Assembly (NCBI GenBank): GCA_046563655.1
Contig: CM102285.1
Coordinates: 8,184,001-8,248,000 of the forward strand
Reading direction: 5' to 3'
Source of the DNA: Yuukianura sp. NJ FZ-2021
Lineage: Eukaryota
DNA length: 64,000 bases
Shown one piece after another: positions 3,478-43,782 of this stretch (position 1 is its first letter; every line of letters begins with the position of its first letter). The notes beneath the pieces were generated by a model. That model did no database searches. It was given only the letters and a program-made list of their open reading frames with translations, and was not told the DNA's origin. The position numbers and the translations under genes were made by a program.

Positions 3478-3531
3478 CAATACGACTTACAGTCTCCTGT
3501 ATTAACCATACTGAATTTGCTCTCTTTTAGA

Positions 3532-5027: not shown

Positions 5028-5714
5028 TGTCAGCTCCTAAACCGGGCCAGAACGGCGGATTCAGGAGTGACATGATTTCCGCCTAACTTGGAAGAACCTC
5101 CAAGGTCGCTTCCAAGTTCGGCGGGATTCGGTTTCACGAGTTGCCCGGAAATCCTAGCAGAGTCATCTCCTGATTAGGAGATGACCCAGTTTCCTCTAAA
5201 AATAGAGACTCAGATTTGCAAATCCTGATTTGCAAATCTGAATCTCGAGAGAGTGAGAAGACGAGAGAGGAAGGAAGCAGATCGGCTAAGGGAAAGCGGA
5301 GTGATCTCGGCCTCAGGGAGAGTTCCCTTAGCCGAGATCACCCGCCTAACCCAACTTAACCCGGACTTGACCTCTCACCCCCTGGAGGTTGCGGAGACCC
5401 TCCGACGTGTTCTCGTGAGTGTGGAAATAAAAAGTGTGCAACAAAACTTTCTCCAGAGCTCTTCCGGAGTCTTCTTTAGTTGGTTAGAAGCGATGTGGTT
5501 AGAGGAGCTTTCTGTTCTGGTCTCCGCTTTCTCCAGATTGACCTCGCAACTCACACGAGCCCTGATCCAGTCACCGTCCGAGATCCAGTCCGATACCTCT
5601 CGGGCCACAGTTATCATGGTGAGGTCTAACATACATTCTCTCATTTCCTCCCGGGAGCCTCGGGGTTACCCCCTCGGTATCCGCGGGGTTCACAGAAGAG
5701 GTGGGAGCTTGACA
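5028..5714 (+). repeat. 3' LTR of the gypsy element (~687 bp)
   Basis: TGTCAGCTC...GAGCTTGACA terminal inverted repeat, preceded by PPT, AATAAA at ~5426, abrupt switch to copia coding sequence after 5714. Confidence 0.8.
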
Positions 5715-6800
5715 GTCAGCCCAAGGAACAGGCCTGTCAAGTGCTCACACCTTGGACTAGAAAAAATGAAAGATGAGGATTACACTTGTAATTCCTGTGT
5801 CCTCGGAAAATCAAAACGGCAAGGTTATAAAACCAGTTCAAGTGAAAGTAATTTTAAAGTTGGCGAATGTTTGCATTTAGACTTGGGCTATGCAAACACA
5901 CTTTCCAAAAAGGGAAATAAATACTTTCTTGTGATCAAGGATCAAGAAAGTAATCCTGACCAAAACAAAATTGTCCTAAGAAGGGACTCAAGTGGAGAAT
6001 ATAAAATTGTTTCTCCACAAAAAGAAAGTTCCATTGAACCGGATTATGTAAATCTAGAAAATGTGACGATCAAATCCGATTCTGACTCAACTCTGGAGAA
6101 TACTTCCAACGACTCAACTATGACGAATAACAGTACATTACGTAGATCAGCTCGTTTACAAGCTAAAAATTCAAAATTTCAAATGTTCGTACAAAAAACT
6201 GTTCCTTCCTCGTATAAGGAAGCAGTTCAATCAACTGAGGTTGACGAATGGAAAGAGGCAATGGAAGACGAATTCAGGAGCCAAATACAAAACAAAACAT
6301 GGATTCTGGTTTCCAGACCACTGAACAGAAAAATACTTAAAAATCGCTGGGTTTTTCGTATAAAAACTAATCCGGATGGGACAATCGACAAATATAAAGC
6401 CAGATTAGTTGTCAAAGGGTTCAATCAGGTTGAACGAGTTGACTACGAAGAAACTTTCGCACCTGTCTGTCGTTATGACACGATTAAGATTATGTTAGCA
6501 TTAGCAGCCCAAGTAGCGTGGGACATGATACAATTTCACATTGCCGCCGCGTTTTTAAATAACACTCTGGACGAAGAAATCTTTATGGAACAACCAGAAG
6601 GGTTTGAAGTTCACGGTACTAGTGCGCATGGCGACAATTTAGTCTGCCTACTGAAAAAGGGACTTTATGGACTAACAAAAATAGCATTTTCATTCATCAA
6701 CGCAGTTACATTGAAACTTTGTTAGACAGATGTAATATGTCCAGTTGCAAACCATCGACTCTACCCATCAGTCCTGGACTGCAACTTAAAACCGCCATTG
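5715..6800 (+). pseudogene. Ty1/copia pol remnant (integrase N-part, RT) with internal deletions; target of the gypsy insertion
   Basis: CNSCVLGK..CLHLDLG; PSSYKEA..WKEAM..E; KYKARLVVKGFNQ..DYEETFAPV; LKKGLYGL; then (other frame) HQRSYIETLLDRCNMSSCKP; YVDD region missing. Confidence 0.88.
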
Positions 6801-6889: not shown

Positions 6890-9800
6890 GTACAAGTGTA
6901 TGTGAAAAGTGTTTAGTAGTGTCTTGACCTTTGAGTGCATAAGTGAAGTGGTAGGTGAAGGTGAAGTGAAAGTTCAAGAGTCAAGTGACTTGTTGCAAGT
7001 GAGTGAAAAGCTTAGTAATACTGTGTCATACCAATATGGCGTCGTTTCCAATTATGAGACTGAGGAAGTCAAATGGCATGAAAAACAAAACACCTGCGCT
7101 ATCAAAGGTTCGTATTTTAAGCTTAGAGTCAGTAGTAGCAGTAGCAGATTTTAAAAATTACTTTGTAGTTTTCATGTGGATTTCAAAATTCCAGAGGTTC
7201 GTGCAAGTTTACATGTAAAAATTATCAAACTTTGGATGAACACACGGAAAGCCATCACGAGTGCTTTCACTGTGGGAAAAGTTTTATGAACAAAGGCAAT
7301 GATCACAAGTGTAACCAAGTCGGCCGTGGCTCAAACAGATTTCTTGGACCCAAGCCTCAAGAAATTGACCCTTCCGTTTTTCAGGAATCAACATTTTCCT
7401 GTCGCGGGTCTGTCCTTATTTATGTTCATCAGGTTCCAGACAGTGACCCACCAGTCACAATGGTGTCGCTATTGATGCAACAGCTCTATACACCATTTGT
7501 AAAACTTTTGACTCAGCTGCTGGAGCATTACAAGGGAATTCGAATTTCTCTTAAGCTAATTGTGAACATGGTGGAGCTCAAGTACAACTTTAGATTCCCG
7601 AATGCTGCAATTTCGAGTCCATTTACCATTCTCACTCATGCAAATTACATTCCACGAGTGTTTCTGCAAACTACATCCTTTGTCATTGAATCGTTGAACC
7701 TATTTTTGCAAAGAGGAAGTGACTGGACAGTGGAACGTATAAAGCGTGTTGAAGTTCACTGCGGCATGTACAAACCATTGCCAGGGCGTGGGTACATTCC
7801 ACTTCCAAAAGAATTAAAGGGACGTCAAGGGCTAGTCAACATAAAAACGTCCAATTGCTTTGAGCTGTCAATTTACTGCAGCATTTTTGGAGACAGTATT
7901 GTGAAAGAAAAGCTGCTCGAAAGAAGATTGATTGGAGCAAAACTTCCAACAAATATTCCAAAATTTAGAAACAGGATACTTTCCAAACCAGCTTCATATG
8001 ATACACTGGTTAAACTGGATCTCTTGAAGCTCACGCCCCAGTTGAGGAGAGATGGCGTAACGATGCTTGACTTTGATGTGGTGGAAGAAATGAACAAGGA
8101 ATTGTCTTTGAACTTGTATCGTTTAGACCACGGTCAGATTGAAATTTCTCGAATTGCCCCGACGGTCAAGAAATACCACGTTAATCTTCTTCAAATTGAA
8201 AATGGGACGGCGGCTCACTTCGTCGCCATTACCGACTTTGGCAAACTTAATGCCACATTTCAAAGAAAAAAAAAGTACGACTATTGTCCAAGGTGTCACA
8301 AAAAGTTTCTTGCCAAACGCAAAAGTATTAATTCACACTTGTGCGGCACACAAGTAGTGACTACAATTTCGAAAAAAAAGTACTTTGAATTTGAAAAGTG
8401 GGATCAAATGCTTCAGTCCCCATTCCTAATGTACCACAAATTTCATTACGTGAATGATGAAACTACAGACTCCAGTGACGCCCGAGTCCACTCGGAAAAG
8501 ATTCCAGTTGGATTTTCGTATTTTTTAATGGAACAAGGAAAGGTTGTCGTTTCTGGTACTTATATTGGGCTGGACGCCATGCAAGCATTTTTAAACATTG
8601 CTCTGGGATGCGCAGATGAAGTTATTCACAACATTAAGACAGTCAACTACCCAATACACTGGACTGCAGAGCAACAACAGCGACACCAAGAAGCGTTGGA
8701 ATGCGAAATTTGTCTAGGTATGTTGGCAATGTAAAAGTAAGATAAGCACAAATTTAAGTTAGTTAATGTTACATTGAGCTTTTGATGATGGTCAACTGTG
8801 CTCTGACGGCAGAAGTTTTTGAAAAGCAACGAAGCGTCAATTGGACAGAATTTGGTCTTGAACTGGCCGCTAGCTGGACAGTCAATGGCTATTCTTTCAA
8901 CGCAGCTGCATTAGTCGGCAAAGTTAAAATTGAATACTTGGCCGATGAAGAGTTTATCGCAGACGTTGAGAACGGGCTGATGGCTGGAATTCAAGTGGTC
9001 AACAAGCGCAAGGTCATTTGTAACACGGATCGTTTTGGACCCGAATACTTGGACCCAACCAAGGAAAGGATTGAATGCCTAAGCTGTGACGTCACTGGCA
9101 GCTATCCTTCCGTGTGTCTCGGACTGCTTCCGATTGGAGATTATAGACGCATGTCACAAGAAGAAATTGATGCTTTTGACTTTGTGAACCCGCCTTGGAA
9201 CGAGTCAAGGGTTTATGTTTTTGTCTGTGACCTCCACTACCCAAACGATGTCCACGATAGACTATCTGCATTTGTGTGTCCGCCAGAGAAACGACGGATA
9301 GATTTGGAAACGCTCTCTCCGCTCCAGCAAGAATTTGTCACGTCAACAAACAAAATTTTGACACCAGAATACTTGTTACTAACTCTATGGGACAAGAACG
9401 GTATAGTTTTGCACCACCAACTTTTGGCAATGTCGCTCCGTTTGGGCGCGGTTCTCAAGAAAGTTCTTAGAGGGTACAGTTTTGCTCAAGCGCCAATTTA
9501 CGCTGGATATGTGAGACACAACTTGCAAAAACGACTAGAAGCCAAGACAAAAACTGAAAAGGAACTTGCAAAACTAGCCAACGTATCTCTAAGTGGCAAA
9601 TTTCTTAGTGACACTGGAGCATACAGCAGGTCACAGCTCTGTAAAACTGCAAGTGGCGCCAAAAGGCTGTTGGCATCTGACGTTTTTGAAAATTTTGAAA
9701 TTATAAACCAAGATGTCACGCTATTTCAATTGAAAAAAAAAAGCAGTCAAGGGGAAAAATTTAAAACTAATTGGACTATGCATCTAGAACATTTCCAAGG

Positions 9801-10381
9801 CAGTGTTGTATTCTTATGTTTACGATCACATTTACCCAGCATTCAACTACAAAATGGAAATGATAATGTGCAATACGGATTCATTTTTTGGCGAATATCA
9901 AAATGACCATGGCACATTTTTGAAAAAGTTGAAATCCTTGGCGCCAATTTTTGACTTTTCGGACCAAGAAGGGGAACTTTTTGACGACAGGAACAAAGGA
10001 AGGCCCGGTGTTTTCAAAATATGCAACTTGAACGTTCAAGAGGCGTATTTCATTTCTCCAACACAATACAGCCTTCAACTTTTTCCAAAAAGAGATGGAT
10101 TTAATTGGACTGAAAAGCTCAAAGTAGGGGGGTTGGAACGACAATTTGCAGCTACTAACCTAAGGCACCAACAATTCAGGGATCATGTGGAGAGGGAGGA
10201 GTTGGAGCAAGACATTGTTTCTGTCGAAAGCCTACGGTTCACCGGAGAGACAATTAACAATATAAAAATTAATCGAAAATCCATCGGAGCATGGGACTTG
10301 AAGAGGTTCTTTGTTTCTAATCGAGAATCCTATGCTTTTGGACATTTTCGACAAATCAACAACAATGCACACCCCAATTAA
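6890..10381 (+). pseudogene. Polinton-type protein-primed PolB paralog with N-terminal C2H2 fingers; catalytic motifs largely substituted; internal deletion ~8720-8770; frameshift near A-run ~9733-9742
   Basis: RGSDW..YKPLPGRGYIPLP..LVNIK..NCF (pPolB N-terminal signature); CEIC (start of HNH insert); motif A CDVTGSYP; motif B KLANVSLSGKF; motif C CNTDS; C-terminal DLKRF..ESYAFGHF. Confidence 0.85.
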
Positions 10382-13192: not shown

Positions 13193-14902
13193 TCATCGAG
13201 GACTAACGACTTTTAATGTACCAGTTAAATGGTCATGATCGCGACATCTCTCAGTAAACTTGTCAAATCTATGACCACATATGTGGCAGTGCGTAGCATT
13301 ACTGTAGGCCATTTCTTCTGCCTGTGTCATCCTGAAAGGTACGTTGATGTCGTAGATTTCCATAATAATTTTGCCAATTTCCAAGCACTCTTCTAGAAAT
13401 ACCTCAATCGCATCGTTTCCTCTATAAACACGAAACGTCACTAGTTCTTGATGTGAGTTCACTAAGGCATATGAAAACCCAGAAGGTACGTGCCGTTTTT
13501 CTTTCACAGTACTTGAGTAGTCATGCTGCGGCGGCATGTCAGCATACATAACGTAGCCAGCTTTCATTTGGTTGGCAAAATTTTCAAATGAAATTTCTTT
13601 TCGGTCTTCTGGCATTTTAACTTTTTGAGCCGCAAATTTCTCACAGCCTACGCGATGTAAATTCAGCAAACAACGACGATCACAAGCTGAGTTTCTGCAT
13701 GTGCTTGGACACATTTTTATTCTCTGAAGGCAATTAAAGCACAAAGCACGTTTTCTGCAGTTCTGTTTCCCTAAGAGTCTGTCTATGTCACGAATTGCAA
13801 CAAAATGCAATGCATTTGTTTTTTTGTTGGTCAAAAGTAGCAAATTTGCAGTGCGGGCATCTGTATAATTAAACTCAGATATTTGCAAAGGATACAAACC
13901 TTGGAGACTATCATGCCCAAACACATTCACAGCAACGCCGTTAGTAAGTTCAAATTGGCGAATTGCCCGGAGTGAAACTGGGAAGGATACCGTAGTGAAG
14001 TCATAAAGACTTTCTAGCTCCAGATAGGAATTCGGCCTTGAAGCTTATTTTTTGTTGGAGATTTTGTGTACCGACGCCAGAAAAGCCCATTTGAAGCAAA
14101 AATTTCCTTTGGTTTTGATGTTGATGGTTGCTCTTTTACGTTGCAAGTACTTTGGCAAATTTCGCCAGGATCCTCCCGTCAAAGCATTAAACTTTGCAAT
14201 TCGTATGTCAGATCCATAAACTTTTCCAAATTGCCACCCGGAACCGTATGTTTCGAAGATGCTTATGGAATGTTCAATCTTTGTGAGACACATTTGCAAA
14301 AACCGGCTAAGGCTGTGGTGATTGTTGAGTATGACAATCATGTTCGAGTTCACCATTTTCTGCTGATATTCATACACATCATTGCCGTCTATTGATTTGA
14401 AGAGAAAGCGTTGAAATTGAACTTTCACAGAAATTTGGCTCTTGACACAATTGAAGGTCCTCAAGCACTCATTAATAATGTGATGTATCTGATCGCTCAA
14501 CTTATAAAAGTACATATTCAAGTTTTCAATTGGTTTTTTTTTGCAATTGTGACAATATGTTCTGATGTATCCTTTGAAAGCTTGAATTTTTTGGAATGGG
14601 TGAATATCCAACTTTCGTCTTTGAGTCATTGAGCCACCACTTTGAATTCTCCTGGTTAAAATCCTTGCAGCACTTTTATGAATTAGCTTGGAATGCTTAG
14701 TAGCTCTATGCCTTTCCAGGTCCAAGTGTCGGTGAAAAGATTTTGAGCAAACTAAGCGCTTGTTAATAGGCTTTCGAGGTCTGCTAAGGCGCCTCGCATT
14801 GAATCGCCGGCATTTTGACAAATGCACCAAAAAATGTTGCTTGTTAGTTGAAACTTTCAGACAGAGTTCGCACCTCAGCGTGGAAAGTTGGATATCTTCC
14901 AT
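13193..14902 (-). pseudogene. Second pPolB (N-terminal half, with HNH/endonuclease VII insert), one in-frame stop at 14045-14047, truncated after the HNH
   Basis: N-terminal C2H2 fingers; YGSGW..GGSW..LP..ATINIK..CFKWA; YVMYAD (ExoI); CHICG..RCRDHDHLTG; ORFs 14045..14902 and 13193..13930 are in the same frame. Confidence 0.88.
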
Positions 14903-24870: not shown

Positions 24871-24888
24871 TTTATTTATCTTCCTAGA

Positions 24889-26300
24889 ATGACAAGGATG
24901 ATAGGATTTATTTCGGTTTGGGTGATGACCTTGATCTGTACAACAACCACAATGGCTACCGTTCCCAGTTACGAGAACGAGGACACCATTCGCTGTCACG
25001 AAGGGATGGAGTACCCTATGAGGAGAAGGAGACAAATTTTGGTTAGTGGAATCAGAAGTGGAAAACTTCAAATTTAACTTGGGACGTCAAAGAAGACATT
25101 CCCAATACGATGGATTTTCAAGATCTGATAGAGAACTTCGAGTTTGCTTTTCAAAAATGGGAAGAAATTTCTAATTTTACGTTTAGTCGTAGAATCAATG
25201 AAACTGTAGACATTTCAATTCAATTTGCAAAAGGCTATCATGGCGACGTCATGGTTTTTGACGGTGTAGGTGGGATCCTAGCATATGCCTATTACCCGAA
25301 TGTTGGGTTAGGCGGAGACATTCATTTTGATGCAGCCGAAAATTGGACTACCACGCCTGGTAGAAAAGGAGTAGATGTATTTTCAGTTATGATTCACGAG
25401 ATAGGGCATGCACTAGGCTTATCACACTCTGAAGTACCAGGATCAGTGATGCATCCGATGTATCATCTCATTGACAAAAATATGTCTATTGGAAAAAAGG
25501 ATAGAAGGGATGATCTTTATAGATTTAGTCGCAATCTATCGCATGGTAGGAGAGACGCATTCCCTACCTTGGATAACTTGATACAAGGTATGTGTAAGGA
25601 GAGTTTGGAACATGGTTTAAAGTGGGGAAATGAGTTCTTCATTTTTAATGACAACTACCATTATCGCATTTCAAAGGGGAAAGTCTCTTTTCCGTATAAA
25701 GTTTTCAATACCAACTATTTTCAACATTACCCTCCGAACATGGGAATTGAGTTAATTTTCCGATTTTATGAGAAAACATTTATCATTGGTGATGATCAAC
25801 TCTGGGAGTTTGGGTTCGCAGCAACATTATCACCCTGGTATCCCAAACCAATGGCAGAACTAGGAATCAATGAAACTAGGGTTATCGGTGTGTTGTCATC
25901 CCCAAAACGACTATATTTACAGTTGGAGAACGGCTGGAAACAGTACTATGTACATCAAAGATTCCTGCAAGAATGGACCTACTCACAAGGTATGCTACCC
26001 CAACTAACTAATCTCAACCAGGCGTTTAACGTAATTGATATCCATCCGGAGGGCTACACCACGTATAATGGTAGCCATATTTTAGACTTTGACACCAATC
26101 TGGTCTTACACTCAGTGAAGCCTTTGATGGACTATTTGGAGTTGCCATGCAATTCCGCTGAGGCTTTGGTAGTGTCGGAACCTATCGGTGGCCTACCATT
26201 AACAGGAATAGCTTTGGCTAGTACCACCGTTGTAGTCATAGCTGTGGTATTAGTTTGCTGGTTTTGCACCTACGGTTATGCTATTTATGCTATTTATTGA
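24889..26300 (+). CDS. Intronless membrane-type matrix metalloproteinase (signal, short pro-region, catalytic domain, hemopexin-like domain, TM), one 1-nt frameshift at ~25050
   Basis: HEIGHALGLSH zinc site, SVMHP Met-turn, HGD..FDG.GG.LA.AY.P and GGDIHFD..E.W; RRRR furin site followed (shifted frame) by KWKTSNLTW; C-terminal hydrophobic helix LASTTVVVIAVVLVCWFC. Confidence 0.92.
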
Positions 26301-27012: not shown

Positions 27013-27350
27013 AGTTAGTGGTAACTGTTTACCAGAAGAAAATAGGTCAAGCCCCCTCCCCATACCCCTAGCCCCTGTCCATTCACCCCGGTACATTGTT
27101 AAAGGTTTTACCCCGTGGCAATTGATGAGTGGTGGATTGAAGACAGTACAGTTATTAAAAACAAAAAATAAATTAATAAAGAATAATTTCTTTAAATTAT
27201 TTAAATATTATTTGTAGTTAACATTTAAACTAAATTTAATTTTAAAAGTGTTATACAAAAAAAAATCAAAAAAAATCCGAGATTCGAACTCGCGTCAACC
27301 ACTACCTCTCTTTTTTGTTACTGTCCCTCTACACCGCCAAGCAATTCTGG
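27013..27350 (+). repeat. Polinton-like terminal inverted repeat (copy 1)
   Basis: First 56 nt (AGTTAGTGGTAACTGTTTACCAG...CATACCCC) are the exact reverse complement of 42325-42380; weaker similarity continues (TTCGAACTCGCGTC at ~27283). Confidence 0.8.
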
Positions 27351-27651
27351 CAACACTGATATGTCAATGAAAAAAAGCAACTACTAGTAAGTGGCAGTCC
27401 GCTAATAATTTTATTATAAAAGTAAAAACAAAGTACACGTGTTACTCTGTTGATGGCGCTGGGGATGTATTTTTAGTTGCACGGGGATGAAATTAATCAG
27501 CTGAGTTTGTTTTTTTTTCTTCTAAACCTTCGTGGGTGGAAAAAGTTGTTCTGTTTCTAATTCATCAGCTGAGTTTTTTTCTGTCTAAACTTGACGTGTA
27601 ACCACAAAAAAACTCAAATATCAAACATTTCCGAAAGTACATTGGAAAAAA

Positions 27652-28840
27652 ATGGAGGTAAGTCAATCAAATTTGGAACAAGTTCGCACAAAATGTAATT
27701 TATTTATTTTATTTATTTCAGAACGAATTGGACAACGTCATCGTAGATCCGGACTTTAAGCCAGAAGGGGTTGTCGTCGAAGGGGTATTTTTTTCTACTA
27801 TATTTTGAAAATGTTTCTCAAATTCTAATACAAGTTTAAATTAATTTAGCCACAGTTATACAACCTGCGCACGGCGCCTGTTCCTTCGCAACTAATTGTA
27901 TAATTTCACATTCCCACCCAACGATTTGACAATTGGGGGGAATTAAAGAAACGGAAAGAAACGCTACCACGATTCCACGATATGAACATCACGAACGTGT
28001 TCTGGGTACGACGCGTCGGTGACGGGCCGGCAGCGGAAAATCAGAAACAGCGAAACTACCAATGGCAAGCATATGTTGGCTTTGGCACAGAAGAAAATGA
28101 GTTTGCGCCGTAAGAAACTTTTTAAATCAACAATTACTTTTGTAGTAATCAACTATTTAAAATTATTAAAACAACTTTTTTCTCTGTATAGTTACCATTG
28201 GGTACTTATAACTGAGAAAACGCCGCCCCATGTGAAAGCCATGGTGACGACGGCGCGAAAAAGAATGCAAGGGATGAGGGACGCACAACGCTTTTTTCCG
28301 CCTCCTGTAGGCCAGCACGACTAGACCAGCTCGGTTTCCGGCCCAGGATTGAGGTAAGCTCATTTTTTCATGGAAAGTAACTTTGATTTAATTTTATTTG
28401 CATTAATTTTAGCCTTCAAGACCAGACTACTACATTTGTTACAAATGTCGCTGCACTTTTCCTGGCCTCGGATATTTAAGGAGGCACAACTGCTATCACA
28501 CTGCGGAATTGGCACTCAAACGACGCAACTAGTGCATAGCATCGCAACTCAGACTCCACCATCTGAGGAATGTCTCCCAGGACCTTCACGAGGAGGAATT
28601 CTTCCCGACTTTTCCACACTAAAATGTCAAAAGTGTGAAATGAAATTTTCAAAAAAGGCAAACTTCAAGCGTCACTATTTTACGATGCACCTTACAATGG
28701 GCATCAATAACGAAATGCACTACAAATACGAGTGCCGCTGTAGATACCAAACAAACCGATACGACAACTATATGCGCCACGTTTTAGGATGTAACATTGT
28801 ATTAGGTGTTAGGTGCCGGATTGAACTCGACCTCTTTTAG
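27652..28840 (+). CDS. Subterminal multi-exon gene (region) ending in a C2H2 zinc finger plus CRC motif; possibly degraded
   Basis: First exon ATG GAG|GTAAGT; exon DPDFKPEGVVVE; last exon CQKC..FKRH..H..YECRCRYQT.R.DNY.RHV..C; homologous to 40602-41739 (-). Confidence 0.65.
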
Positions 28841-29248: not shown

Positions 29249-29675
29249 GTGGTAACTGTTTACCAGAAAAAAAATAGGTCAAGCCCCCTCCCCATACCCC
29301 CAGCCCTTGTCCGTTCACCCCGCTCAAATGCAATTTACCCCGGGGCCTGTAGTAGAGTGAAAAGAAAGAAGAAGAACTTTTAAAACATTATTCAAACAAA
29401 TTAGTAATTTATTAATAAAGTAAATTTAAATTATTAATTAAATTATTGTTAAATATAATTTATAAACTAAAAAAAACAAATAAAAAAAATGAAAAAAAAA
29501 TATAAAAAAAATCTAATTTCGAACTCGCGTCTTTTTCTTTCTCTCTATTTTCTGAACTGTGTCTCTGCACCACTTCACCATCAAGGCAGTGTTGTAAATC
29601 TCCAAAAAAAAAAAACAAACTCATGAACTTCACACTGAAAGTTGAGTTTACATTTTTGATTGTTGTAAGATTTCT
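29249..29675 (+). repeat. Left TIR (~430 bp) of the central Polinton
   Basis: Highly similar reverse complement of ~41949-42375, including the long AT-rich tract; extreme terminus degraded. Confidence 0.9.
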
Positions 29676-29959
29676 AACGTTTTTTCCTTATATGACGTTC
29701 GGAGTTGACCTTTTGCAGTTGGATAAAAAGTCTGCCAAAAAAGAAAATGTAGTGTTTTAGCGCTTTTCAGCGCTCTTCCAAACTTCCCCATAAGTTAAGT
29801 TTTGTGTCCAGAGTGGCGGTTACTTTTGAGTCACCACCACTCTCTCAAAATCACATAGTTTTGGCACTCAATGTTTGAGTGCCGCCCAGCAAACACTTAT
29901 ATTAGTTTTAAGTATTGGATTAAATAAATAAGTACATTTATTTAAATTGCCGAATACAC

Positions 29960-30728
29960 CACAGAAAAGATTGGCTTCATTCTCATCTGCATGGACTTGT
30001 TTAGCCGCTTTGTTTGGACAGAGTTCTGTGTGAATAAGACAGCACGAGTAGTTTTGGAGGCAATGAAGAAAGTCTTCAAGAAAGCCGGGGTAAATGTCTT
30101 CTTTCCTCTCCCTTCAAGTCAATTTACACTCTATCATTTTTTTTCTCAGCATCTTCCGCATTTTTTGGCTTCCGGTTTTGGAAAAGAATTCAAGAATAAA
30201 ACCCTTTTGAAATATTTGGAAGCCAATGACATTCACAGCAATTCCCCGAGAACTGCGAGAAAAGTTTCACAGGTAGGCTATTGACCCCAAAAACAAAACG
30301 ACGGTTTTTATAAACGTCTACCACACATTGATAAATTCAAAACCAGAAAAGCCAAAATTCAAGGTAACAATTAAACATTCGCTTTGTTTTATTTAAACAG
30401 TCTTTTTTCCACAGGTGAATCAGCTCGTGAGGGTCGCAAAAAAGCTGCTAACTTTTGAAAAAGCTTCAACGTCACAATCGTACTCTACGGAAGTCTTTAG
30501 GTAAAGAAGCATATTTGCCCTGTTTTGGAATGTATGCCAAGCGTTTCTTTTTTTATAGGATTAGAAAGGCAATCAGCGCAGTGCCTCCTTTTTACTATCT
30601 TGAGACGCTGAAAAAGGAGGAGATTAAAGGTAACCATTTTAGACGAAATATGCCTGTTGACAAAGCCACGTCTATTTCTTTTTTTAGGAAGTTTCTTAAA
30701 CGAAGATTTGACCCCAGTGACTGCATAA
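29960..30728 (+). pseudogene. Polinton rve integrase with spliceosomal introns (30090-30149, 30364-30414, 30501-30558, 30630-30687, extra donor 30273); partially deleted
   Basis: FILICMDLFSRFVW..NKT; SGFGKEFKN (TDxGxEF with D replaced by G); spliced C-terminus KPKFK|VNQLVRV..FEK..YSTEVFR|IRK..YYLETL..EEIK|GSFLNEDL..*; phases restore the frame; stop ends 1 nt before the next ATG. Confidence 0.85.
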
Positions 30729-30729
30729 A

Positions 30730-31482
30730 ATGTATCCGTTTTCACGCTTCGTGACTCTAGGTTCTACTTTCTTCCCCTCATTCTTCCCATCTAATAATAC
30801 AAGTTCTTTTCGAAATAAGCTTTTGGACAGTATTCCTTTGCAAAAGAATCTCCCGCTAGAAGATGCAGTTTGTAATTTGTGGTACCCCGCAACGCCAGAC
30901 ACTGGAAAGTATACGATTTTTGCCCATGAACCCGACGACAATGTCGTTTCCTTGGTTCAGCGCTTCGAATCGAGCATGGAAGTGTTTCGAGCCGAAAGTG
31001 AAAGTTAAATTGAAACAATTAACAAATGCAATACGAATTTTGCAATATTCAACAACAAGCTGACATTTCTATTGGACGTAGAAGAAGGAAGGGACTTTTT
31101 AACATTTCGCAACAATGACGCTGGCTACGACGTGAAAATTCCAGAAGTCTATGCGCGTGCTCTCGGATTTACAAAAAATGTGTTTGGCCAGGGTGAAACT
31201 AGCGCGCCGTTGTCTCCAAGCCAAGCAGCGTTGGACGCAATTGACATTTCAGAGCCGCTAAAGTTTACTGTTTTTCGTGAAGTCAGTTCTACTGTAAAGG
31301 TCAATGAACCCAAGGTAAAGACGGTCAAAGGCGTAGTTAGTGAAATCAACGTTGCTTTGAAGCAGATGAAAATTTCATTTTCCTACGACGAAAGCAAGCT
31401 CAGCGTCAACGGTGTCTACGGAAGTGGCTATAGTGTTCGTCTCTCGGAATTTCTTGAAAAAACTTTTGGCCTCAAAACTCCA
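30730..31482 (+). pseudogene. Polinton minor capsid protein, N-terminal part, interrupted by BEL insertion
   Basis: FVTLGS..FFPSNNTSSFRNKL..IPL..EDAVCNLWYP matches the penton N-terminus (fyvTLpS..fp.Nt.s.F...L...i.l..wev.l..i.yP). Confidence 0.75.
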
Positions 31483-31855
31483 TGTTGGTTTATCTACAGC
31501 AACACTTCCTCCCCGATGTTGTGGCTTTATACCACATAGATTTTACAAATAACCAACAAACACAGACTTTTAGGATAGCGTCAACTTTAGCGTAAAAATA
31601 GGCATAGTGTTGACTTTTAGCCTTAGGTTATAGGTAGCGTCCTAACGGTCAAAAAAAGGAACAAGAATCAACACAACTTCAATAGTCTAAGTATAGGATA
31701 CAACATATAGTCATCTTTTTCACTTCAATTCATTAAGTCAGATTTTCAATTTCACTTTCTCACGATTAAGTTTAAATTAGTAAAAAATAAATCAAAATCA
31801 ATTTAAATCATCTTCATCTCCTCTCCCTACTGTTCATTTGCGACAAGTAGCAACA
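31483..31855 (+). repeat. BEL/Pao 5' LTR (373 bp)
   Basis: TGTTG...CAACA termini, AATAAA at ~31786, followed by PBS. Confidence 0.8.
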
Positions 31856-31878: not shown

Positions 31879-31995
31879 CCTTGAGCGGATGTCAACGGAA
31901 GACTACATGCAGCATCAACCGACGACAAACGTTTAAGGTCAAATCATCCACTAGCATTACAGTTTGGTTAATTGTTGTTTTCTGAGACTGACAGC

Positions 31996-34370
31996 ATGGC
32001 AGCAGGAACAAAAACAACATTGGCTGATCTTCTGAAGTTACGTCAGAGCCTGGGTCAACAAATTCAGATGCATCACAAGGTCATCGCTATGTACAATGAA
32101 CAAACACCAATTCCAACAATCAGAACAGCAGAACGGGAACTGACCAGAGTCAGGAATGACCTTGACCTACTCCACAACAAGATCATCATCGCCACGACAA
32201 ACGATGAAGATATTGAAGATCATTCAAGAACCTACATAGAGTTTGTCACTTTGATTGGTACCATGAATGAAACGCTGATCACAATACAGCCGGCTTCAAC
32301 TCCATCATCACTACCTGGTCCATCAGTTCTTTCAACTTCTGCACACTCACATCATCACAATGTCCATTCCTACTTTCCAAAGATGTCGTTACCAACTTTC
32401 GACGGAAAGTATGAAGACTGGCTGACATTTCGGGATTTATTCCGCAGCACAGTCATCAACAACACTACATTACCCAACAGTGTCAAGTTCTGGTACCTCC
32501 ACTCCGCCCTCAAGGGTGAAGCTGCTACCGTCATCAAGGGCACTCCCATCACGGATGACAACTTCCAAGGAGCATGGCAGCTGATGGAAGAACGCTATCA
32601 TAACCGCAGAGAGTTGATCTTCACATTAATTGAAAAACTGGTCAACTTCCCAAAACTGAAACAGGAGAATTCCGCTCAGTTGAGGAAACTAATCGAGTGC
32701 TTCAAGGAATCTCTCACACAGTTAGAGACCCTCAACGAACCAACACAACATTGGGATTCAATCATCGTCTATCTTCTCAAGGAAAAGATGGACCCAGACT
32801 GCCGTCGTGACTGGACGAAGCAACTAAAGGGCTCAGAGGTTCCAAATTTCTCCAACACTAAAGAATTTCTGGAAAACTATATCCGGGGACTCAAATCCAC
32901 TGGATCTTCATCGTCCTCCGGATCCTCTAGCCAAAGTAAGGCTCACTCCAGTTTCACGGAAAGCAAGTCCACAGAACAAAAACACAAGTTCACTTGTCCA
33001 CACTGCCAAGGTGAACATGGCTTGTTCAAATGTGATAAGTGGCTACAGTTGTCAGTGAAAGACAGATTTAACTTTGTCAAAAAGAAAAGTCTGTGTACTA
33101 ACTGTCTCAGCTCCAAGCACAGTGTAGGAAAGTGCCAGTCCAAGTACAGATGTCGGACATGTCAAGAGCCACACAACAATTTACTTCATTTTGACACAGC
33201 GAAGGCTCACTCCACGTCGCAACAAAATGATGTGGAGACTTCAACATTGGCAAATCATTGCTCCACGTCCAAAGTACTGTTGAGCACTGCGGTTGTCAAA
33301 CTAATCGACTCAGCCGGCGAATTCCAGGAGTGTCGTATCCTGTTGGATCAGGGGTCAGAGTCTAACTTTATCTCCGACCGCTGTGTGACAAAACTGGGAT
33401 TGGCACGTAAGAAGTCAAATGTAACCATTGTTGGTATTTCAGGTTCAAATGCTGGGAAGGCACTGGGTCAAGTCACATTTGACCTGTGCTCACGCATTTC
33501 CAATTTTAAAATTCATGTAAATGCACTAATTTTGCAAAGAGTCACAGGTTTCTTGCCTTCGTCCAAATCAATTCGCAGAAGTGGACTCATCTCATGGGGA
33601 TACAATTGGCAGATCCCGATTTCACAAATCCGAGAGATGTTGACATAATCCTCGGAGCCGAGTTCACCGCTTCAATCACACTCAGTGGCAAAATCATTGG
33701 TCCACCTCACACTCCAATTGCACAGGAGACAACATTTGGTTGGGTAGTTTCGGGGCCTACGGGTACAACCAGTCATCCCACCGTTCACGTCAACCATGCA
33801 ACTGTTGACATTTTACAAAAATTCTGGGAACTAGAGGAACTGCCCAAGCGACCAAACTACTCAATCGAGGAGCAATTTTGCGAGGACCATTTCATCGCTA
33901 CTCACACACGAAATGAGGAGGGAAGGTATGTCGTAAGGTTGCCATTAAATGAAAACATTTCTAAACTAGGTGACAGCCGCGACATCGCAGTGTGCAGACT
34001 CCAGCAAGTGGAAAAGAGGCTACGACTGAACCCAATTCATCATCCTGAATACATTAAGTTCATGGATGACTACCAAAAATTGGGTCACATGGAGGAAGTA
34101 CAACAAGGTCAACTTCCTTCTGGGTCGAAGGTCGTCTACCTCCCCCACCACTTTGTACTCAAGGAGTCCAGCACCACCACCAAACTCCGAGTCGTTTTCG
34201 ATGGCTCCGCAAAAACATCCAGTGACATTTCGCTCAACCAATGCCTTCAGGTGGGACCGACGGTACAAGATGACATTTTTTCCTTACTCCTTCGGTTTCG
34301 TAAGTACCCAATCGCACTAAAGGGTGATGTAACGAAAATGTACCGACAGTTTTTGGTTCGCCAACATTGA
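31996..34370 (+). pseudogene. BEL/Pao gag-pol (DUF1759-like gag, Cys/His knuckles, aspartic protease, RT start); frameshift ~33570; 3' truncated
   Basis: LPTFDG..W..F..LF; CPHC..H..C, CTNC..H..C, CRTC..HN.LLH; LLDQGSE; FWELE; YLPHH.V.K..TTKLRVVFDGS; GDVTKMYRQF. Confidence 0.93.
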
Positions 34371-35209: not shown

Positions 35210-35440
35210 ATGGCTTCAGTAAACACGCTTCCAGATACAAAGCCCAATTACGTCTCCCAACTCGATCTATTCTCAGTCCCCCCAACAGACATTAGTGTGC
35301 AACAAACAGAGTTCATCAAGATTATTCCAGTGAATACTGTAAAAGAAAATCCTCAAATCACACTCAACATTGGGCAGTTTCAATTCCCACCCAACGTTTA
35401 CTTGGATTTCTCATCTTCATACCTCTACCTAAAATGTTAC
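35210..35440 (+). pseudogene. Polinton major capsid protein, N-terminal ~75 aa only
   Basis: SQLDLFSVPPTDISV...P...YLDFSSSYLYLK matches the Polinton MCP start (seLdLFsvPpTq.si..YiDls.t.Ly.k). Confidence 0.8.
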
Positions 35441-36857
35441 TAATTACACGAGAAAATATTGGCCCTGTGATTCAAGTTACAAAGTTGAAGTCTATTGCCA
35501 ACAATGAGGAGCTGTCCAACTATGACCATACCCTTCCACAAAAAATAATTTTATATGCTGACATTAACTCCTGTTACAGCAAGTGCTTCTTGGGTAATTT
35601 ACCGTGCGGAAACTACAAAAAATTGAGAGCAGAGGAGATCATGAAGTTTGATTTCAACAAACCAGATTTTGACGAAGGCTGGGGTTACCTCTTTGAAGTC
35701 GACCTTGAATATCAAAGTGAAGCAGTAGTGAAAGAGTTCCTTTCAGACTTTCCCTTCCCGCAACAGAGACTCAAGGTTTCCGATCAAGAGCTTTCTCCAT
35801 TCCAGCGGGAGAGTTTGGGAGAAAAAACAAACATGGAACAAGAGCGAGTGCTTCTGACCCTCTACAAAAAAATACGACAAGTCTACTACGGAAAGTACCT
35901 CAAGTTCATGATTGACCATGGCGCAAAGGCAACAAAGTACTATTCAGTAGTTCGATTTCGGGAGTCTCCGATTTTTGCAAATTTTGCAGCTAGCAATGTT
36001 ATAGCTAGAAACCAAGCAAAGTTTCCTCTTCAAAAACAACTTCGGAAGCTTTTAAACAACTCGCTTTATGGGCAGATGCTGAAAAACAATGCAGATTACG
36101 TACGTTCAAAGACCATCAGATCTCGGTGGAAGCGAAAGCAGAACTTGCGAAAGCAACTTTCAAGTCGTTCGAGATTCGGGACGAAGACACTGCGCTTTTT
36201 GACTTTTCAAAAGGAGAAATCACCGATTACAATCTGCGCATGATTGGACTTGCAATACTTTCAAATGCAAGAATTATGCTCCACTCACACTACTATGACT
36301 GACTAAAACGTGAGTTTGGGGACAGGTGCCATCATGTGATGACTCATACTGACAGCATAGTTGCTGAAATCCACTGCAGCAGAGCCGAATACGTAGCTTG
36401 TCTGAAACGACTTTCGAATCGCTTCGACTTTTCTAATATACTGCCGTCATCCGAACTCTATGATTCTTCTCGGGCAGGAATACCTGGATTCTTGAAGATT
36501 CAAGCTGAAGGAATCAACGAATTTTACTCTACTTCCTGTTCCCAATATTCCATGGAAATTGATTCAGCACATTTGCAATCCAACATTCTGAAAGCGGGCG
36601 GAATTCCAAAAACAGAGGCCAAGGATCTGAGGCACGCTGATTTTAAGCGCGTAGTTGAGCATGGAGAGGCTTTGAAGAAAGTAAAAATTTCTACGGTGAA
36701 AATTTTACAAGACCAAATGTTAGTTGTCACAAGTAACCGCTCATCCCTCACCTCCAGCATCAACGCATCAAGATTTTTTGTGTCAAACGCAATTTCCCTT
36801 CCCTTTGGAGACAAGCGTATTGACACCATAGTTGATTATGATTTGAAAAATAATTAG
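35440..36857 (+). pseudogene. Third pPolB (polymerase domain only), frameshifted ~36120
   Basis: IANN..YD; LYADINSCY (motif A); GYLFEVDLEY; RKLLNNSLYGQ (motif B); MTHTDS (motif C); C-terminal SLPFGD. Confidence 0.87.
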
Positions 36858-37851: not shown

Positions 37852-40404
37852 TGTGATGAAACGAAGTCAGCGACCTCCAAGGATCACATAATTTGAATAA
37901 TCTTCTCAAAAATAGATTCTTTTGTCTTTTGTGCAAAAGTAAACTTTTGCACACAACATGTAAATAATTAGAATTAATTAGTTCACTGACCTTCTGTTAA
38001 AGTTAGACGTTTACAAATATGATAATTTGGAGTAACTTGTAACTCCTGTGGTTTCCGGCTGGGGCCCTATAAAAGGACCCAGCCCTGCCTGTACAAACAA
38101 TCATTCAACTTCTACCTTCTGCTCCGCTTGGACAGAAGACTTTTCTACAAACTGTGCTTTTCATTTTTCATTTTAACTTTGAATAAAAAGTTCATTGACT
38201 CCGCACCAAGCGGAGAACCTAAACTTTGTAGTGCGTGATTCTTTTCTTTTAGGCCAAAAGGCCTTTTTCACTACAATTGGTGGACGAGAGCCGCGTTGAA
38301 CCAACGGGCAATGACCTCCACAGGGTCCGCTATAGGCGTTGACCAAATGACCTTATGGCGGTGGTCTGCTCTGTGCCTCTTGTTGATGGCAAGAAGAGCA
38401 TTGACCTGTTGACCCTGAGGTGGGATGCATATGCATCCAGTGCTGTGGACAGCAAAATTGCTGTCTATAAGAAAAAGCACAAAATGGAGGCGTTGAAACA
38501 CGCCAGAAACAAATCTTTGTTTGACCCCTATGAGGTCAAATGTCACAAAATTTTGAAAAATTATGTTGACCTTGATGAAGGTCAAATCAAAATAATTCCT
38601 TTTGACTCCGATGATGTCAAATTTCAAAATTTATGAAAAATCTAAGAAGGGGAGGGTGTACAATGCATTTAGCATTGTATTGACCCCGGTTGACCCCGCA
38701 CAAAAAAAAATTTGACTTTTGTTAAAACTTAATGTTGGGTTTCAAAACCCTGCTTCAAAATAAAGTTCAATTTTGTTCACTGTCAGGTGAAATGCAAATC
38801 ACCTGAAATAACCAAATTTTCAACTCAAAAAGATCTGACTCAAAATTGACAAAATCATGCAAGGGCACAATGACCCTTGACTAAGAATATTCTGAACTTT
38901 TCAGAATAAACATGAAAAGTACGTCAAATTGACAAAACTAAATGCAGAAGTTAAATTGCTTTCCGAAACTCTCATTTTAATTCAAAATTATACCGATCTT
39001 TGTCAAAAATTAATTTTCCAAACCGATTCAATCAAAACTGCTGAGTTTGCCCAGTCATGTTTTTTTTGAAATTGAGCAATGACCTAAAACCCAAAATCCA
39101 TTTGAGGACTCAAAATGCAGGGTCCAAAATAATATGGAGGGACATGAAGGCACTGCTAATTTCAACTGGCTCGGTAAGCAAAACCCAGACAATTTCTTAA
39201 AATTTCCACTTTTGGTAAGAAATTACCTCTGAAATTTGTTTAACTTTTTATGTCGACTCCAGTTTCGCAAATACAAGTTAAAGAAAGATTTTCAGTGAGA
39301 AAATTAACCTCTGAGATTTGCTGAAACATGCGGGAGACTTCAAAGTTATTGCAAATTCAAGTAATAATTGCCCACTAATTGCATCTGATTGTTTAAAATA
39401 AAAACTAAAATCATGAATCCTTGTGCGCCACCATTGAATTTGCTCTTAAGGTGGGGTAGATACCTCAACCGCGCAAATTCAAACTCAAAAAGCAGTCGGC
39501 GAAAGCGATCGAACTGTAGAGTTAAAATGGTGTGCGACATGGTCTTTTCATGAAAAATAAATTTGTTTCACAAAAAGTTGCAAAAAGACTCATTTTTAAC
39601 TCAGAAATTCAAAATCATGTCAAAAATTCAAAATCCCAAAAAGGAAACAGAAGTTACTCTTAAAACAACAAGAACACCAAGCTGAAAAGCTTAACCTCGT
39701 TTCCTTCACCTCACCAAAAACAAGGTCAACGAACCTAAGCGGTGATTCATGGAACAAAAGTAAGCTGACCTTTGACCTTTTTGCAATTTGCAAATTTGGT
39801 TGTCATGTTCCATGCCCCGCTCCTCAACATTCCTCAATTTACATTATTTCATTTTTCTATTATTCATTTTACTTAATTTTATTTTTATATTTCTAGGTGA
39901 ACTTGGAGACGCTGATGGACTGCCGCATTCCCACCAAACTCAACGAACTCAGGAGAGTTCTCGTTCTAAGGAGGGAGGAATGTGATGAAACGAAGTCAGC
40001 GACCTCCAAGGATCACATAATTTGAATAATCTTCTCAAAAATAGATTCTTTTGTCTTTTGTGCAAAAGTAAACTTTTGCACACAACATGTAAATAATTAG
40101 AATTAATTAGTTCACTGACCTTCTGTTAAAGTTAGACGTTTACAAATATGATAATTTGGAGTAACTTGTAACTCCTGTGGTTTCCGGCTGGGGCCCTATA
40201 AAATGACCCAGCCCTGCCTGTACAAACAATCATTCAACTTCTACCTTCTGCTCCGCTTGGACAGAAGACTTTTCTACAAACTGTGCTTTTCATTTTTCAT
40301 TTTAACTTTGAATAAAAAGTTCATTGACTCCGCACCAAGCGGAGAACCTAAACTTTGTAGTGCGTGATTCTTTTCTTTTAGGCCAAAAGGCCTTTTTCAC
40401 TACA
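37852..40404 (+). mobile_element. Young non-autonomous LTR retroelement (2553 bp) with CTAT TSD
   Basis: 424-bp LTRs 37852-38275 and 39981-40404 (TG..CA; one mismatch seen by eye); PBS TGGTGGA.. at ~38278; PPT AAGGAGGGAGGAA 39968-39980; CTAT at 37848-37851 and 40405-40408; no long internal ORF. Confidence 0.95.
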
Positions 40405-41948: not shown

Positions 41949-42380
41949 GAAATCTTACAACAATCTAAACTCAACTCAACTTTCAACTTTCAGTGTGAAG
42001 TTCATGAGTTCGTTTTTTTTGGGGATTTACAACACTGCCTTGATGGTGAAGTGGTGCAGAGATACAGTTCAGAAAATAGAGAGAATGAAAAAGACGCGAG
42101 TTCGAAATCAGATTTTTTTTTATTTTTTTTTTTCATTTTTTTTATTTGTTTTTTTTAGTTTATAAATTATATTTAACAATAATTTAATTAATAATTTAAA
42201 TTTACTTTATTAATAAATTACTAATTTGTTTGAATAATGTTTTAAAAGTTCTTCTTCTTTCTTTTCACTCCACCACAAGCCCCGGGGTAAACTGCATTAG
42301 AGCGGGGTGCACGGACACTGGCTGGGGGTATGGGGAGGGGGCTTGACCTATTTTCTTCTGGTAAACAGTTACCACTAACT
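41949..42380 (-). repeat. Right TIR of the central Polinton
   Basis: Reverse complement of 29249-29675 and of 27013-27068; ends ...ACCACTAACT (5'-AG...CT-3' termini). Confidence 0.9.
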
Positions 42381-43782
42381 TACATTCTTTGGACGGTATG
42401 CCTATTCCTCTGTAAAGCAGAAAATCAAGAAAATGCGACTATCAAAGATTTATTTACTTCTCATGACACAAAAACCTCTGAACTTTTTTATTGTCGCGGA
42501 TGGACTAACGGTATTCCTTGGAATCTACCAGAAGATATTTCTTGTCCTTTGGTTGATACTACTAAACCTTCTACTTTAATAGACTTAACATTTTGGCATC
42601 CCGATATTACGCATAACACTTTCCAAGGTTATGAATGCTTTCGAATCCGTGAAGAAGTTAAGACATACAAGACTTTTTTGGATCCAAATCAGAAAAATTT
42701 TTAAAATCCAAAGAGGCAGTTACTGAGAGAGAATGCAGAGATATGGTAAGATCTCACCGCAGTCCACAACCTCAAAACTTGCCCTTGGAAAAATTACTCG
42801 ACGGATTATTTGGCACAAAATTGCAATTGACAACTGAATATTGGTGACTTACTACTTATACTAATACCATAACTAACTACTTTCTTGTCCCTTTGACTAT
42901 AACGGTAAATGACGCTGATGATTCTATTATCACCAACGCAAAAACTGCTGAACTGTGTAATTTCAGAACCGGATACTATCCAAAAGACACGATTTTGCAA
43001 TTCAATCTATAAACAGAGAAGTATGCCAATCACACAAATCTCATTTACAACTTTTGAGAATGCTTGCAGCAAGTGGACAACCTAGTTTACTTGTTAGGAC
43101 ACTCATGCGTAGTCCGGGATACAGAGCTATAAATACTGGCGATCTAGTAGAAATTTACAAATGTGACGTTACTACTGATTACATGCTACTACCACAAACC
43201 GAGTGTATTTTAGAATGGCCAATAGAATTTTTTCATTCAACAGAAAAACGAAAAGGTTATTTAGCGGGAATTACGCACGAAATTTTTGATAAACCAACAT
43301 ACGTTGCATGCCCAGCACCAAATTACTATTTAAATTAGTGAAATCTAACGCTTCAATTCACAAACCGAACTGCTGTTGAAGATTATCCAATGATTCCTTC
43401 TTCTTATAGTGATTTAGAAATTGCAAAAATGCCCGAACTTAGTTATACCTCACCAGGTTCTTATTCTATCGAAGAAATTTCAGGTTCAGACACATTCATG
43501 GCTCTTAGGAGGGAAATGCAAAATTTAAATCGCATAAATTATCTAGTAGACAAGTATGTGAAAGGAGAAACTTTAGATCCCTTTGACAACAAGTCTTTGT
43601 CTCGTTTCCGTGAATTTGTCATTTCTCCGTTTCAGGATAACGTTTCATTTATTGGACTGATTGCTGTCGTGATTTTCTTGTTTCTAATCTTTATGAAATT
43701 TTGCTACTACAAAAAAGATGTAATTCTCATTAGATTCACACAATTTCGAAACAGAAAAAGTAATTCAGACTATATTAGTTAG
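42381..43782 (+). pseudogene. Membrane-anchored gB-like env glycoprotein, frameshifted and deleted; starts at the TIR boundary
   Basis: Partial signal YILWTVCLFLCKA; FYC..GIPWNLP..SC; GYECFR..KTF; GQPSLLVRTLM..YRA..GDLVEIYKC (like gB NP..ARxxGDVxxxxxC); TM FIGLIAVVIFLFLIFM plus basic tail. Confidence 0.75.

Follow-up and report, generated by a model that had tools for sequence, protein, structure and literature searches.

Can the integrase gene of a virus-like transposon be split by spliceosomal introns? This question is raised by a 64,000-nucleotide (nt) stretch of the animal genome of Yuukianura sp. NJ FZ-2021 (assembly GCA_046563655.1, contig CM102285.1, positions 8,184,001 to 8,248,000 of the forward strand; hereafter the window, meaning this whole stretch), in which a first reading of the letters by a model, the original prediction, had described a Polinton integrase interrupted by four introns at positions 29960 to 30728. 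The genes of intact vertebrate Mavericks are intronless, "in agreement with" Kapitonov and Jurka 2006 (PMC8097293), the core genes of nematode Mavericks are intronless and their cargo genes carry introns (bioRxiv 10.1101/2022.07.12.499685), and a large survey that used a prokaryotic gene finder describes endogenous viruses as intron-free (PMC10120064). The literature searched, which did not cover the founding Polinton papers, yielded no account of a Polinton/Maverick integrase with conserved spliceosomal introns. We conclude that positions 29675-31536 probably hold a decayed piece of a virus-like element that is low in copy number and mobilised as DNA, and whose rve/DDE c-integrase gene carries dense short GT-AG introns. 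Sequence comparisons support the view that all four segments have the behavior of spliceosomal-type introns in the integrase gene of a mobile element.

The four segments are as follows:
30090-30149, plus strand: intron I1, 60 nt, phase 0, GTAAAT..CTCAG
30364-30414, plus strand: intron I2, 51 nt, phase 0; read-through meets an in-frame stop
30501-30558, plus strand: intron I3, 58 nt, phase 2
30630-30687, plus strand: intron I4, 58 nt, phase 1

All four begin with GTAA and end with AG, and pyrimidines make up 80-93% of their last 15 nt, which bears out the pyrimidine-rich acceptors described in the original prediction; their guanine-cytosine content is 32.6%, compared with 41.5% in the exons. 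As a chance control, a strict pattern (GTAA start, 50-61 nt, at least 80% pyrimidine across the final 15 nt before AG) was counted on both strands of the window. It occurred in 17 segments, equal to 0.13 per kilobase (kb) per strand, and four of these were the introns listed above. About 0.1 such segments would be expected in 783 nt, and four were observed. Three or more strict segments were found in 6 of 633 windows of 783 nt on the plus strand and in 0 of 633 on the minus strand, and all six overlap the integrase region. The coordinates first given for the four introns are exact, and their number is far above chance. A GT..AG motif alone is insufficient, since looser criteria gave many candidates by chance, so it is homology that carries the argument.

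Thirteen integrase-like proteins were placed on the window by tblastn. Two of them, P0002 and P0003, are the intron family's own read-through open reading frames (ORFs). Eight of the 11 non-family rve-type proteins opened a gap of 20-22 residues precisely across I1; as to the remaining three, P0006 ended at the I1 donor, P0011 gapped elsewhere, and P0013 passed ungapped through I1.

A metagenome scan returned seven loci. Four of them (L001-L004) are diverged copies of the integrase gene from two assemblies, as judged by contig-name prefix, with exons 55-67% identical to those of the window in nucleotide sequence; L005 and L007 are integrase genes without introns. In the window and L001-L004 taken together, 25 of 25 interruptions are GT-AG, 24 of them 51-67 nt long and one 202 nt long. 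The I1 position is common to all five loci, and I4 was present in 4/4 loci, I3 in the four loci reaching it, and a further intron, Id, in 3/3. Another intron, Ic, occurs in all four relatives, which read ..KASQ, then GT.., then (A/V)ER(L/V)I.TLR; the window keeps the Ic donor, and the fifth donor that had been pointed out at 30273 is this conserved one. At the shared positions I1, Ic, Id, I3, and I4 the phase is the same throughout, so that the phases noted from the window (0 for I1, 2 for I3, and 1 for I4) recur identically in the relatives. Exon lengths were conserved as well, being 123 nt in 5/5 loci (split into 39 and 84 nt in L002), 113 nt in 4/4, 204-207 nt in 3/3, and 71-74 nt in 4/4. 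Removal of six introns from L003 leaves a 945-nt frame with zero internal stops and a complete D,D,E triad, and the partial spliced frames of L001 and L004 are open as far as the expected stop. With six introns in the complete L003 gene, six each in the 5′-cut L001 and L004 genes, and an upstream helicase gene that is interrupted too, the proposal of an intron-rich lineage holds.

Might the segments nevertheless be chance GT..AG stretches, small insertions, or products of pseudogene decay whose removal restores the frame fortuitously? I1, at 60 nt, is open in frame and was read through by metagenome gene callers (P0002, P0003), the window copy is clearly decayed elsewhere, and chance candidates abound under looser criteria. 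Against this stand the uniform GT-AG borders and the five conserved positions and phases in five loci with exons of so low an identity, the four strict segments where about 0.1 was expected, and the open spliced frame of L003. Furthermore, intron lengths vary regardless of reading frame and ignore multiples of three, and read-through of L001's I1, like that of the window's I2, meets stops. Intron sequence is at the shuffled level, shared introns having identities of 0.48-0.54 compared with 0.47-0.50 for shuffles, whereas exon identities were 0.59-0.64 compared with 0.49. We regard a fortuitous origin as highly improbable.

The remaining introns are restricted in distribution. I2 is confined to the window and to one or more further copies from a run of the same organism, and L001, L003, and L004 lack it; intron A is found in L001 and L004, A′ in L003, five codons further on, and B in L002. 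Judged by these comparisons, the pattern is one of real introns with turnover, not of decay.

The two read-through ORFs, P0002 and P0003, are metagenome ORFs running into I1, and the frame of P0003 shifts there. P0002 shows Trp where its contig has an in-frame TGA inside I1 (L001 269-328); its gene caller evidently used a code with TGA as Trp, which is how P0002 ran through the intron.

Other genomic copies also carry the segments. Contigs from four DNA runs, three from one organism A sample and one from organism B, were placed at a likeness of at least 80%. Diverged copies of about 85-98% identity from organisms A and B together span I1, I2, I3, and I4: I1 is spanned by X1 record 4 and X2 record 11, I2 by X1 record 6 (which begins at 30275 and has 210 of its 386 letters on the window), and I3 and I4 by X2 record 14, while X4 record 28 spans I4 and part of I3. 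I4 is thus spanned by contigs of both organisms (X2 record 14 and X4 record 28). Among the listed joints of DNA contigs, 0 of 6 removes an intron. Since other copies span them, the introns evidently go along when the DNA is copied, which is what a DNA-mobilised element would lead one to expect. The segments are carried both by diverged relatives and by other genomic copies. The intron-bearing family is apparently low-copy, with few diverged contigs besides the window's own locus.

The window copy itself is a mosaic of coding remnants and foreign sequence, with these parts besides the four introns:
29249-29674: repeat of about 430 nt, which abuts and truncates the integrase 5′ end
29675-29741, plus strand: integrase coding fragment (..FFPYMTFGVDLLQLDKKSAKK..), matched by tblastx to L001, L003, and L004
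29742-29962: 221-nt high-copy repeat inserted in the coding sequence
29963-30089, plus strand: exon with the first catalytic Asp (..ICMDLFSRF..), Asp codon 29994-29996
30150-30272, plus strand: 123-nt exon; second catalytic Asp replaced by Gly, codon 30174-30176, in an ungapped alignment
30273-30276, plus strand: remnant of the Ic donor at a deletion junction
30277-30363, plus strand: middle of exon 5 (AIDPKNKTTVF..PKFK)
30415-30500, plus strand: rest of exon 5 (VNQLVRVAKK..STEVF)
30559-30629, plus strand: exon 6 (IRKAISAVPPFYYLETLKKEEIK)
30688-30728, plus strand: last integrase exon and stop (..SFLNEDLTPVTA*), TAA at 30726-30728; no chromodomain

Integrase homology begins at 29668-29675, directly 3′ of the 430-nt repeat, where residues 60-89 of P0003 align to 29668-29757 by tblastn, and the N-terminal 60-70 residues are missing. 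Other repeat copies and other integrase copies run on into different sequence at the junction 29674/29675. Copies of the repeat lie at 27013-27335, 29249-29674, and, inverted, 41949-42375, with one sharp end in common; the copy at 29249-29674 is 93% identical to the inverted copy and about 70% identical to the third. The inverted pair 29249-29674/41949-42375 was considered as element termini and rejected in favor of a dispersed repeat, because there is a third copy in direct orientation, the gene is cut short by the repeat, and other copies run on beyond the junction. This repeat contains an A-rich stretch and a TTCGAACTCGCG motif recalling a tRNA T-arm on the opposite strand, and it could be read as tRNA-SINE-like; no tRNA (ARAGORN) and no Rfam family was found in it.

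The gap of about 210 nt at 29752-29964 was likewise considered as a long intron and rejected, as it is the 221-nt high-copy repeat, which other copies lack. The form without 29742-29962 (joint 29741>29963 or 29742>29964) was present in 4/4 DNA runs, depth across 29782-29895 was 2060-4513 compared with about 100-700 in bins from 30010 on, and similar 9-mers (29736-29744 and 29962-29970) flank the repeat at a site where L002 and L003 are contiguous. The 221-nt element is probably a miniature non-autonomous transposon. It is of very high copy in organisms A and B and has internal hairpins at 29810-29843 and 29863-29883.

Immediately past the Ic donor, tblastx picks up homology again at 30277, already within exon 5. 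What lies between in the relatives (the remainder of Ic, the 113-nt exon encoding the catalytic Glu, Id, and the first part of exon 5) has been lost here in a separate deletion at 30273-30277, which breaks the spliced frame. The second catalytic Asp is kept in L002, L003, and L004, and is Gly in the window and Asn in L001; L002 has a TAG within the 123-nt exon. The window copy cannot work, given its 5′ truncation, repeat insertion, lost Asp, deleted Glu exon, and broken downstream gene. By its letters, it is a dead relic without function.

Is the decayed gene part of a mobile element or of the host? Its neighbors bear on this point. The window retains one of them:
30730-31536, plus strand: downstream gene of the type of protein P0040, with an in-frame TAA at 31006-31008 and the last ~90 residues missing relative to P0040

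The integrase is followed by this gene in the window as well as in 3/3 contigs extending that far, and the window version is 51% identical to that of L003 over 147 residues (E 2e-41). P0040, a full-length relative of 357 residues without introns, was the only one found by a search with the downstream gene. The ORF following the integrase in L005 aligns weakly with the P0040-type gene along its full length (E 1e-4 for one pair). No match was obtained for the downstream gene in a PDB profile search (0 matches) or in PHROGs; Pfam gave only a sub-threshold match to the STIV turret (E 0.021), the AlphaFold model has low confidence (mean predicted local distance difference test score 54), and a weak Atlas lead points to SPRY/Neuralized-like clusters (score 0.93, 165 shared features).

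Integrase stop and downstream start overlap as TAATG in L001 (1262-1267) and L004 (2133-2138), read TAAaATG in the window (30726-30732), and are separated by a 5-nt gap in L003 (3508-3514). The virus-like compaction that had been remarked upon (stop 30728, next ATG 30730) is thus conserved as closeness of stop and start in L001, L003, and L004. Such TAATG and TAAaATG arrangements recall the termination-reinitiation stop/start overlaps of some RNA viruses and retroelements.

Upstream of the integrase, a PIF1-like helicase gene (PF05970, E 2.8e-11; Pif1_2B, E 1.3e-6) is found in 3/3 contigs reaching there, with 1 nt in L003 and 8 nt in L002 between the helicase end and the integrase ATG; the window has no helicase. 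The helicase gene is interrupted as well. Four of seven gaps between its conserved blocks in L003, and five of eight in L002, are unreadable as one frame, and GT-AG candidates were found for four of the unreadable gaps in L003 and for two in L002, the exact models being provisional. The gene order is therefore helicase, integrase, and P0040-type gene, head to tail, with stops and starts overlapping or nearly so. This order and the overlaps suggest one spliced multi-gene transcript for the three genes.

Several diverged copies, independent lesions in different copies, and conserved neighbors with stop/start overlap are signs of a mobile element. Several observations must be set on the other side of the scale. 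The family is very sparse: the 112-residue frame 29946-30281 had 16 matches at E ≤0.001 against 1.84 billion representative proteins, of which P0001 and P0004 are repetitive proteins that look like chance matches and the remainder are rve-type integrases, and no homologue of greater length turned up when the integrase N-terminus was searched for. In IMG/VR, scans with either the integrase or the downstream gene brought out no further family members. For L001-L004, gene models were drawn up by eye on three-frame printouts and verified afterwards with a script, not with an independent spliced aligner. The last 15 nt of the relatives' acceptors are 40-87% pyrimidine, and several of these tracts are weak (0.40-0.67 in L001). 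We infer splicing itself from DNA sequence, and mobility and element class are read indirectly, since no intact copy, terminus, or target-site duplication was found for the intron-bearing family. The loss of the second Asp in the window and L001 would also fit a non-catalytic derived gene.

This last point leads to an explanation in which a host gene family, derived from a domesticated non-catalytic integrase, has ordinary host introns and the window holds its pseudogene. An intron density like that of a cellular gene, the substituted Asp in two of the five loci, and the want of detected terminal repeats or target-site duplications agree with it. But L003 and L004 retain the catalytic residues, and several diverged copies per genome bear independent lesions. 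The fixed three-gene array beside a helicase, with its overlapping stops and starts, is unlike a cellular gene arrangement, and the downstream gene also sits beside the integrase of L005, a contig that encodes PolB. A domesticated host gene is accordingly unlikely, and a mobile element the better account.

To which class does the mobile element belong? The original prediction called the gene a Polinton integrase and saw further intron donors behind the HNH motifs of two PolB genes. Three PolB fragments lie in the window:
7169-10378, plus strand: PolB fragment, DNA_pol_B_2 match at 8767-9903 (Pfam)
13211-14608, minus strand: PolB fragment, recognized solely by tblastn with PolB homologues
35404-36821, plus strand: PolB fragment, DNA_pol_B_2 match at 35296-36240 (Pfam)

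Their identity with PolBs of spider mites and metagenomes is 25-29%, truncation or frameshift affects every one of them, the Cys/His motif (C..IC .. DHDH) is present in two, and no nucleotide similarity was found among the three. On the minus-strand copy, homologues align uninterrupted from 14608 to 13220 (about 1.39 kb) and then stop; in the first plus-strand copy, 47 nt of DNA (8728 to 8776) stand in the place of about 180 residues present in the homologues. The GTs proposed as intron starts (~8718 and 13222) sit at different places in the Cys/His motif. As intron starts they were rejected, since they coincide with truncation and deletion points; this part of the prediction is unsupported. 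Over 1.0-1.4 kb the PolB fragments are poor in introns, unlike the integrase. The integrase module is separated from the nearest PolB fragment by a BEL/Pao fragment, and the sole long inverted repeat of the window is the pair at 29249-29674/41949-42375 (93%) with its third direct copy, for which no target-site duplication was identified.

These data leave room for the possibility that the introns are real and the element is not a Polinton/Maverick, but an integrase element with a PIF1-like helicase and no protein-primed PolB (pPolB), the window PolBs coming from unrelated intron-poor Polintons. The upstream neighbor is a PIF1-like helicase rather than PolB in 3/3 contigs reaching there, neither a helicase nor a linked PolB adjoins the window copy, the window PolB fragments align uninterrupted where the integrase does not, and the window ORFs scanned with Pfam gave no capsid, packaging ATPase, or adenain-like protease. 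A PIF1-like helicase does not exclude a Polinton, however, since in the bona fide Polinton-2 of Hydra magnipapillata a PIF1-clade SF1B helicase gene lies directly upstream of pPolB (Krupovic, Yutin and Koonin 2016, PMC5499653). Moreover, the integrase and downstream gene have same-order counterparts in L005, which additionally encodes a DNA_pol_B_2 fragment and a P-loop ATPase. No PolB was found on L001-L004; these contigs are 1.7-5.3 kb long and could simply fail to reach it, so its absence from the whole element is unproven. We hold a non-Polinton element to be a real possibility, at clearly less than even probability. Of the earlier designation, the rve-type integrase stands, and Polinton membership is not established, as no PolB is linked and the neighboring gene is a PIF1-like helicase in each contig that extends to it. 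On present sequence comparisons the family is Polinton-related, by its integrase and by the gene order shared with L005, and is not a demonstrated Polinton.

The family can also be compared with known systems. With the Maverick/Polinton c-integrase (rve, PF00665) it shares the rve core, with D,D,E in L003, and tightly packed genes. The N-terminal region (..GSF.G.. AYS(L/V)..), the Asp region (..(F/Y)(I/V)L(I/V)C(L/M)D..FSR(F/Y)..), and the C-terminal ..FYYLE..G(S/T)F.. align with the L005 integrase and with P0011 and P0015, which are rve proteins with a C-terminal chromodomain. The family differs in having six short introns within a coding sequence of roughly 1 kb, where Maverick core genes are reported intronless, and in lacking a chromodomain; PolB, terminal repeats, and capsid genes are not tied to it. 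Polinton-2 of Hydra, compared by description, is likewise a virus-like element carrying a PIF1-like SF1B helicase gene, but here the gene that directly follows the helicase is the integrase, and the 1.7-5.3-kb contigs show no PolB.

Ginger1, whose integrase-like transposases have one to four canonical GT-AG introns (PMC2836005), offers a precedent for a DNA-mobilised integrase-type gene with conserved canonical introns inherited via DNA transposition. By description, it is a single-gene cut-and-paste element with OTU or Ulp1 domains, whereas the present introns are more numerous and very short and lie in a compact multi-gene array. The nearest homologues of the family are c-integrase-like, and the multi-gene array argues against membership in Ginger1/Ginger2. 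In dinoflagellates, introner transposons populate Maverick-Polinton-like proviruses (PMC11957031/PMC12166617), which thus are integrated virus-like elements with spliceosomal introns. Those introns are recognizable introner copies, mostly acquired after integration and in protists, whereas here they are unrelated in sequence, conserved in position across diverged copies, and in an animal genome. Nematode Mavericks also hold intron-containing genes beside the integrase (wasp and krma), but these are host-derived cargo; here the core integrase itself is split. As virus-like elements are generally treated as intron-free, the intron-bearing integrase is unusual, a real but uncommon variant.

The introns had also been called host-sized. 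One gene used for this comparison, an SLC6 transporter gene on the minus strand at 57.7-62 kb, has introns of 188, 294, 2701, and 116 nt, placed with the Pfam SNF profile and conserved motifs. A second minus-strand gene at 55.4-57.2 kb, for which Pfam found nothing and which presumably resembles a conserved host protein, has introns of 63, 75, 71, and 273 nt, read from ORF continuity alone. Pfam on 145 ORFs gave matrixin alone as a further host gene for intron sizing, with an in-frame stop and no usable intron. The host does have a class of short introns, but all eight host introns in the window (63-2701 nt) exceed the four integrase introns (51-60 nt), so "host-sized" is an approximate description. 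As the relatives' introns are similarly small (51-67 nt), small intron size may be as much the element's property as the host's, on a sample of eight host introns.

How would such a gene be expressed? In intact relatives the integrase gene would be transcribed in the nucleus, and its six introns (51-67 nt), presumably of the U2-type (GT-AG) spliceosomal class, would be spliced out by the host machinery. The spliced mRNA would encode a DDE integrase of about 314 residues that inserts element DNA, and because copying passes through DNA and not RNA, new copies would inherit the introns. I1, Ic, Id, I3, and I4 would then be old shared positions, and I2, A, A′, and B sub-lineage-specific ones. Both the transcript structure and the mobility are points that we infer. 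A role of splicing in regulation, or in escaping the silencing of intronless transcripts, as the original prediction put forward, would be a further conjecture. More tentatively, and with some doubt, one may picture a Polinton-related lineage in small animals whose helicase and integrase depend on splicing. Its 51-67-nt "minimal" introns, shorter than those of the current host, would travel with the element and be gained and lost within the lineage (I2, A, A′, and B), and one spliced multi-gene transcript would serve the three genes, with the downstream frames reached by termination-reinitiation at TAATG/TAAaATG.

If such a splicing-dependent lineage exists, its elements would systematically escape surveys with prokaryotic gene finders and could transfer introns from host to host. 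In surveys of endogenous Polinton-like viruses, intron-free genes are a common assumption and prokaryotic gene callers a common tool (PMC10120064). Such pipelines are blind to an integrase that must be spliced six times, and public protein sets contain read-through fragments only (P0002 and P0003). The value of the window copy is therefore that of a pointer to a family missed by standard pipelines. An intron-bearing integrase ties element expression to the nuclear spliceosome, the family offers a case of intron gain and loss traceable within a mobile-element lineage, and the introns together with the stop/start overlaps raise the question of how a single compact spliced unit can yield several proteins.

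The surroundings of the integrase are animal DNA rich in transposons, according to Pfam on the window's long ORFs:
2-1939: Gypsy-type pol (Pfam)
5229-6722: Copia-type reverse transcriptase (Pfam)
25047-26297: matrixin (Pfam)
28358-28837: C2H2 finger ORF (Pfam)
29946-30281: weak rve match (Pfam E 0.0043, below the cut-off)
31972-33645: BEL/Pao gag (Pfam)
42961-43335, plus strand: rhabdovirus-like glycoprotein fragment (Pfam Monjiviricetes fusion glycoprotein family PF24664, E 1.8e-9)

The glycoprotein ORF (42961-43335) sits shortly beyond the inverted 430-nt repeat copy and may represent a piece of an endogenous virus or a retroelement envelope gene. The matrixin region (24888-26300, plus strand; Peptidase_M10, E 3e-44) is a single long intronless frame that an in-frame stop divides from a degenerate "cysteine-switch"-like stretch upstream, possibly a processed or decayed copy. 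Two direct repeats of 424 nt each (37852-38275 and 39981-40404), 99.8% identical and 2.1 kb apart, resemble the long terminal repeats of a small recent insertion with little coding capacity. Upstream of the integrase, the plus-strand region 27640-28840, which includes the C2H2 finger ORF, contains by eye short GT..AG segments of similar style, for example at ~27658-27721, 28110-28191, and 28354-28413. This region is multi-copy, occurs also in organism B, and could be cargo of the integrase's element or a separate repeat.

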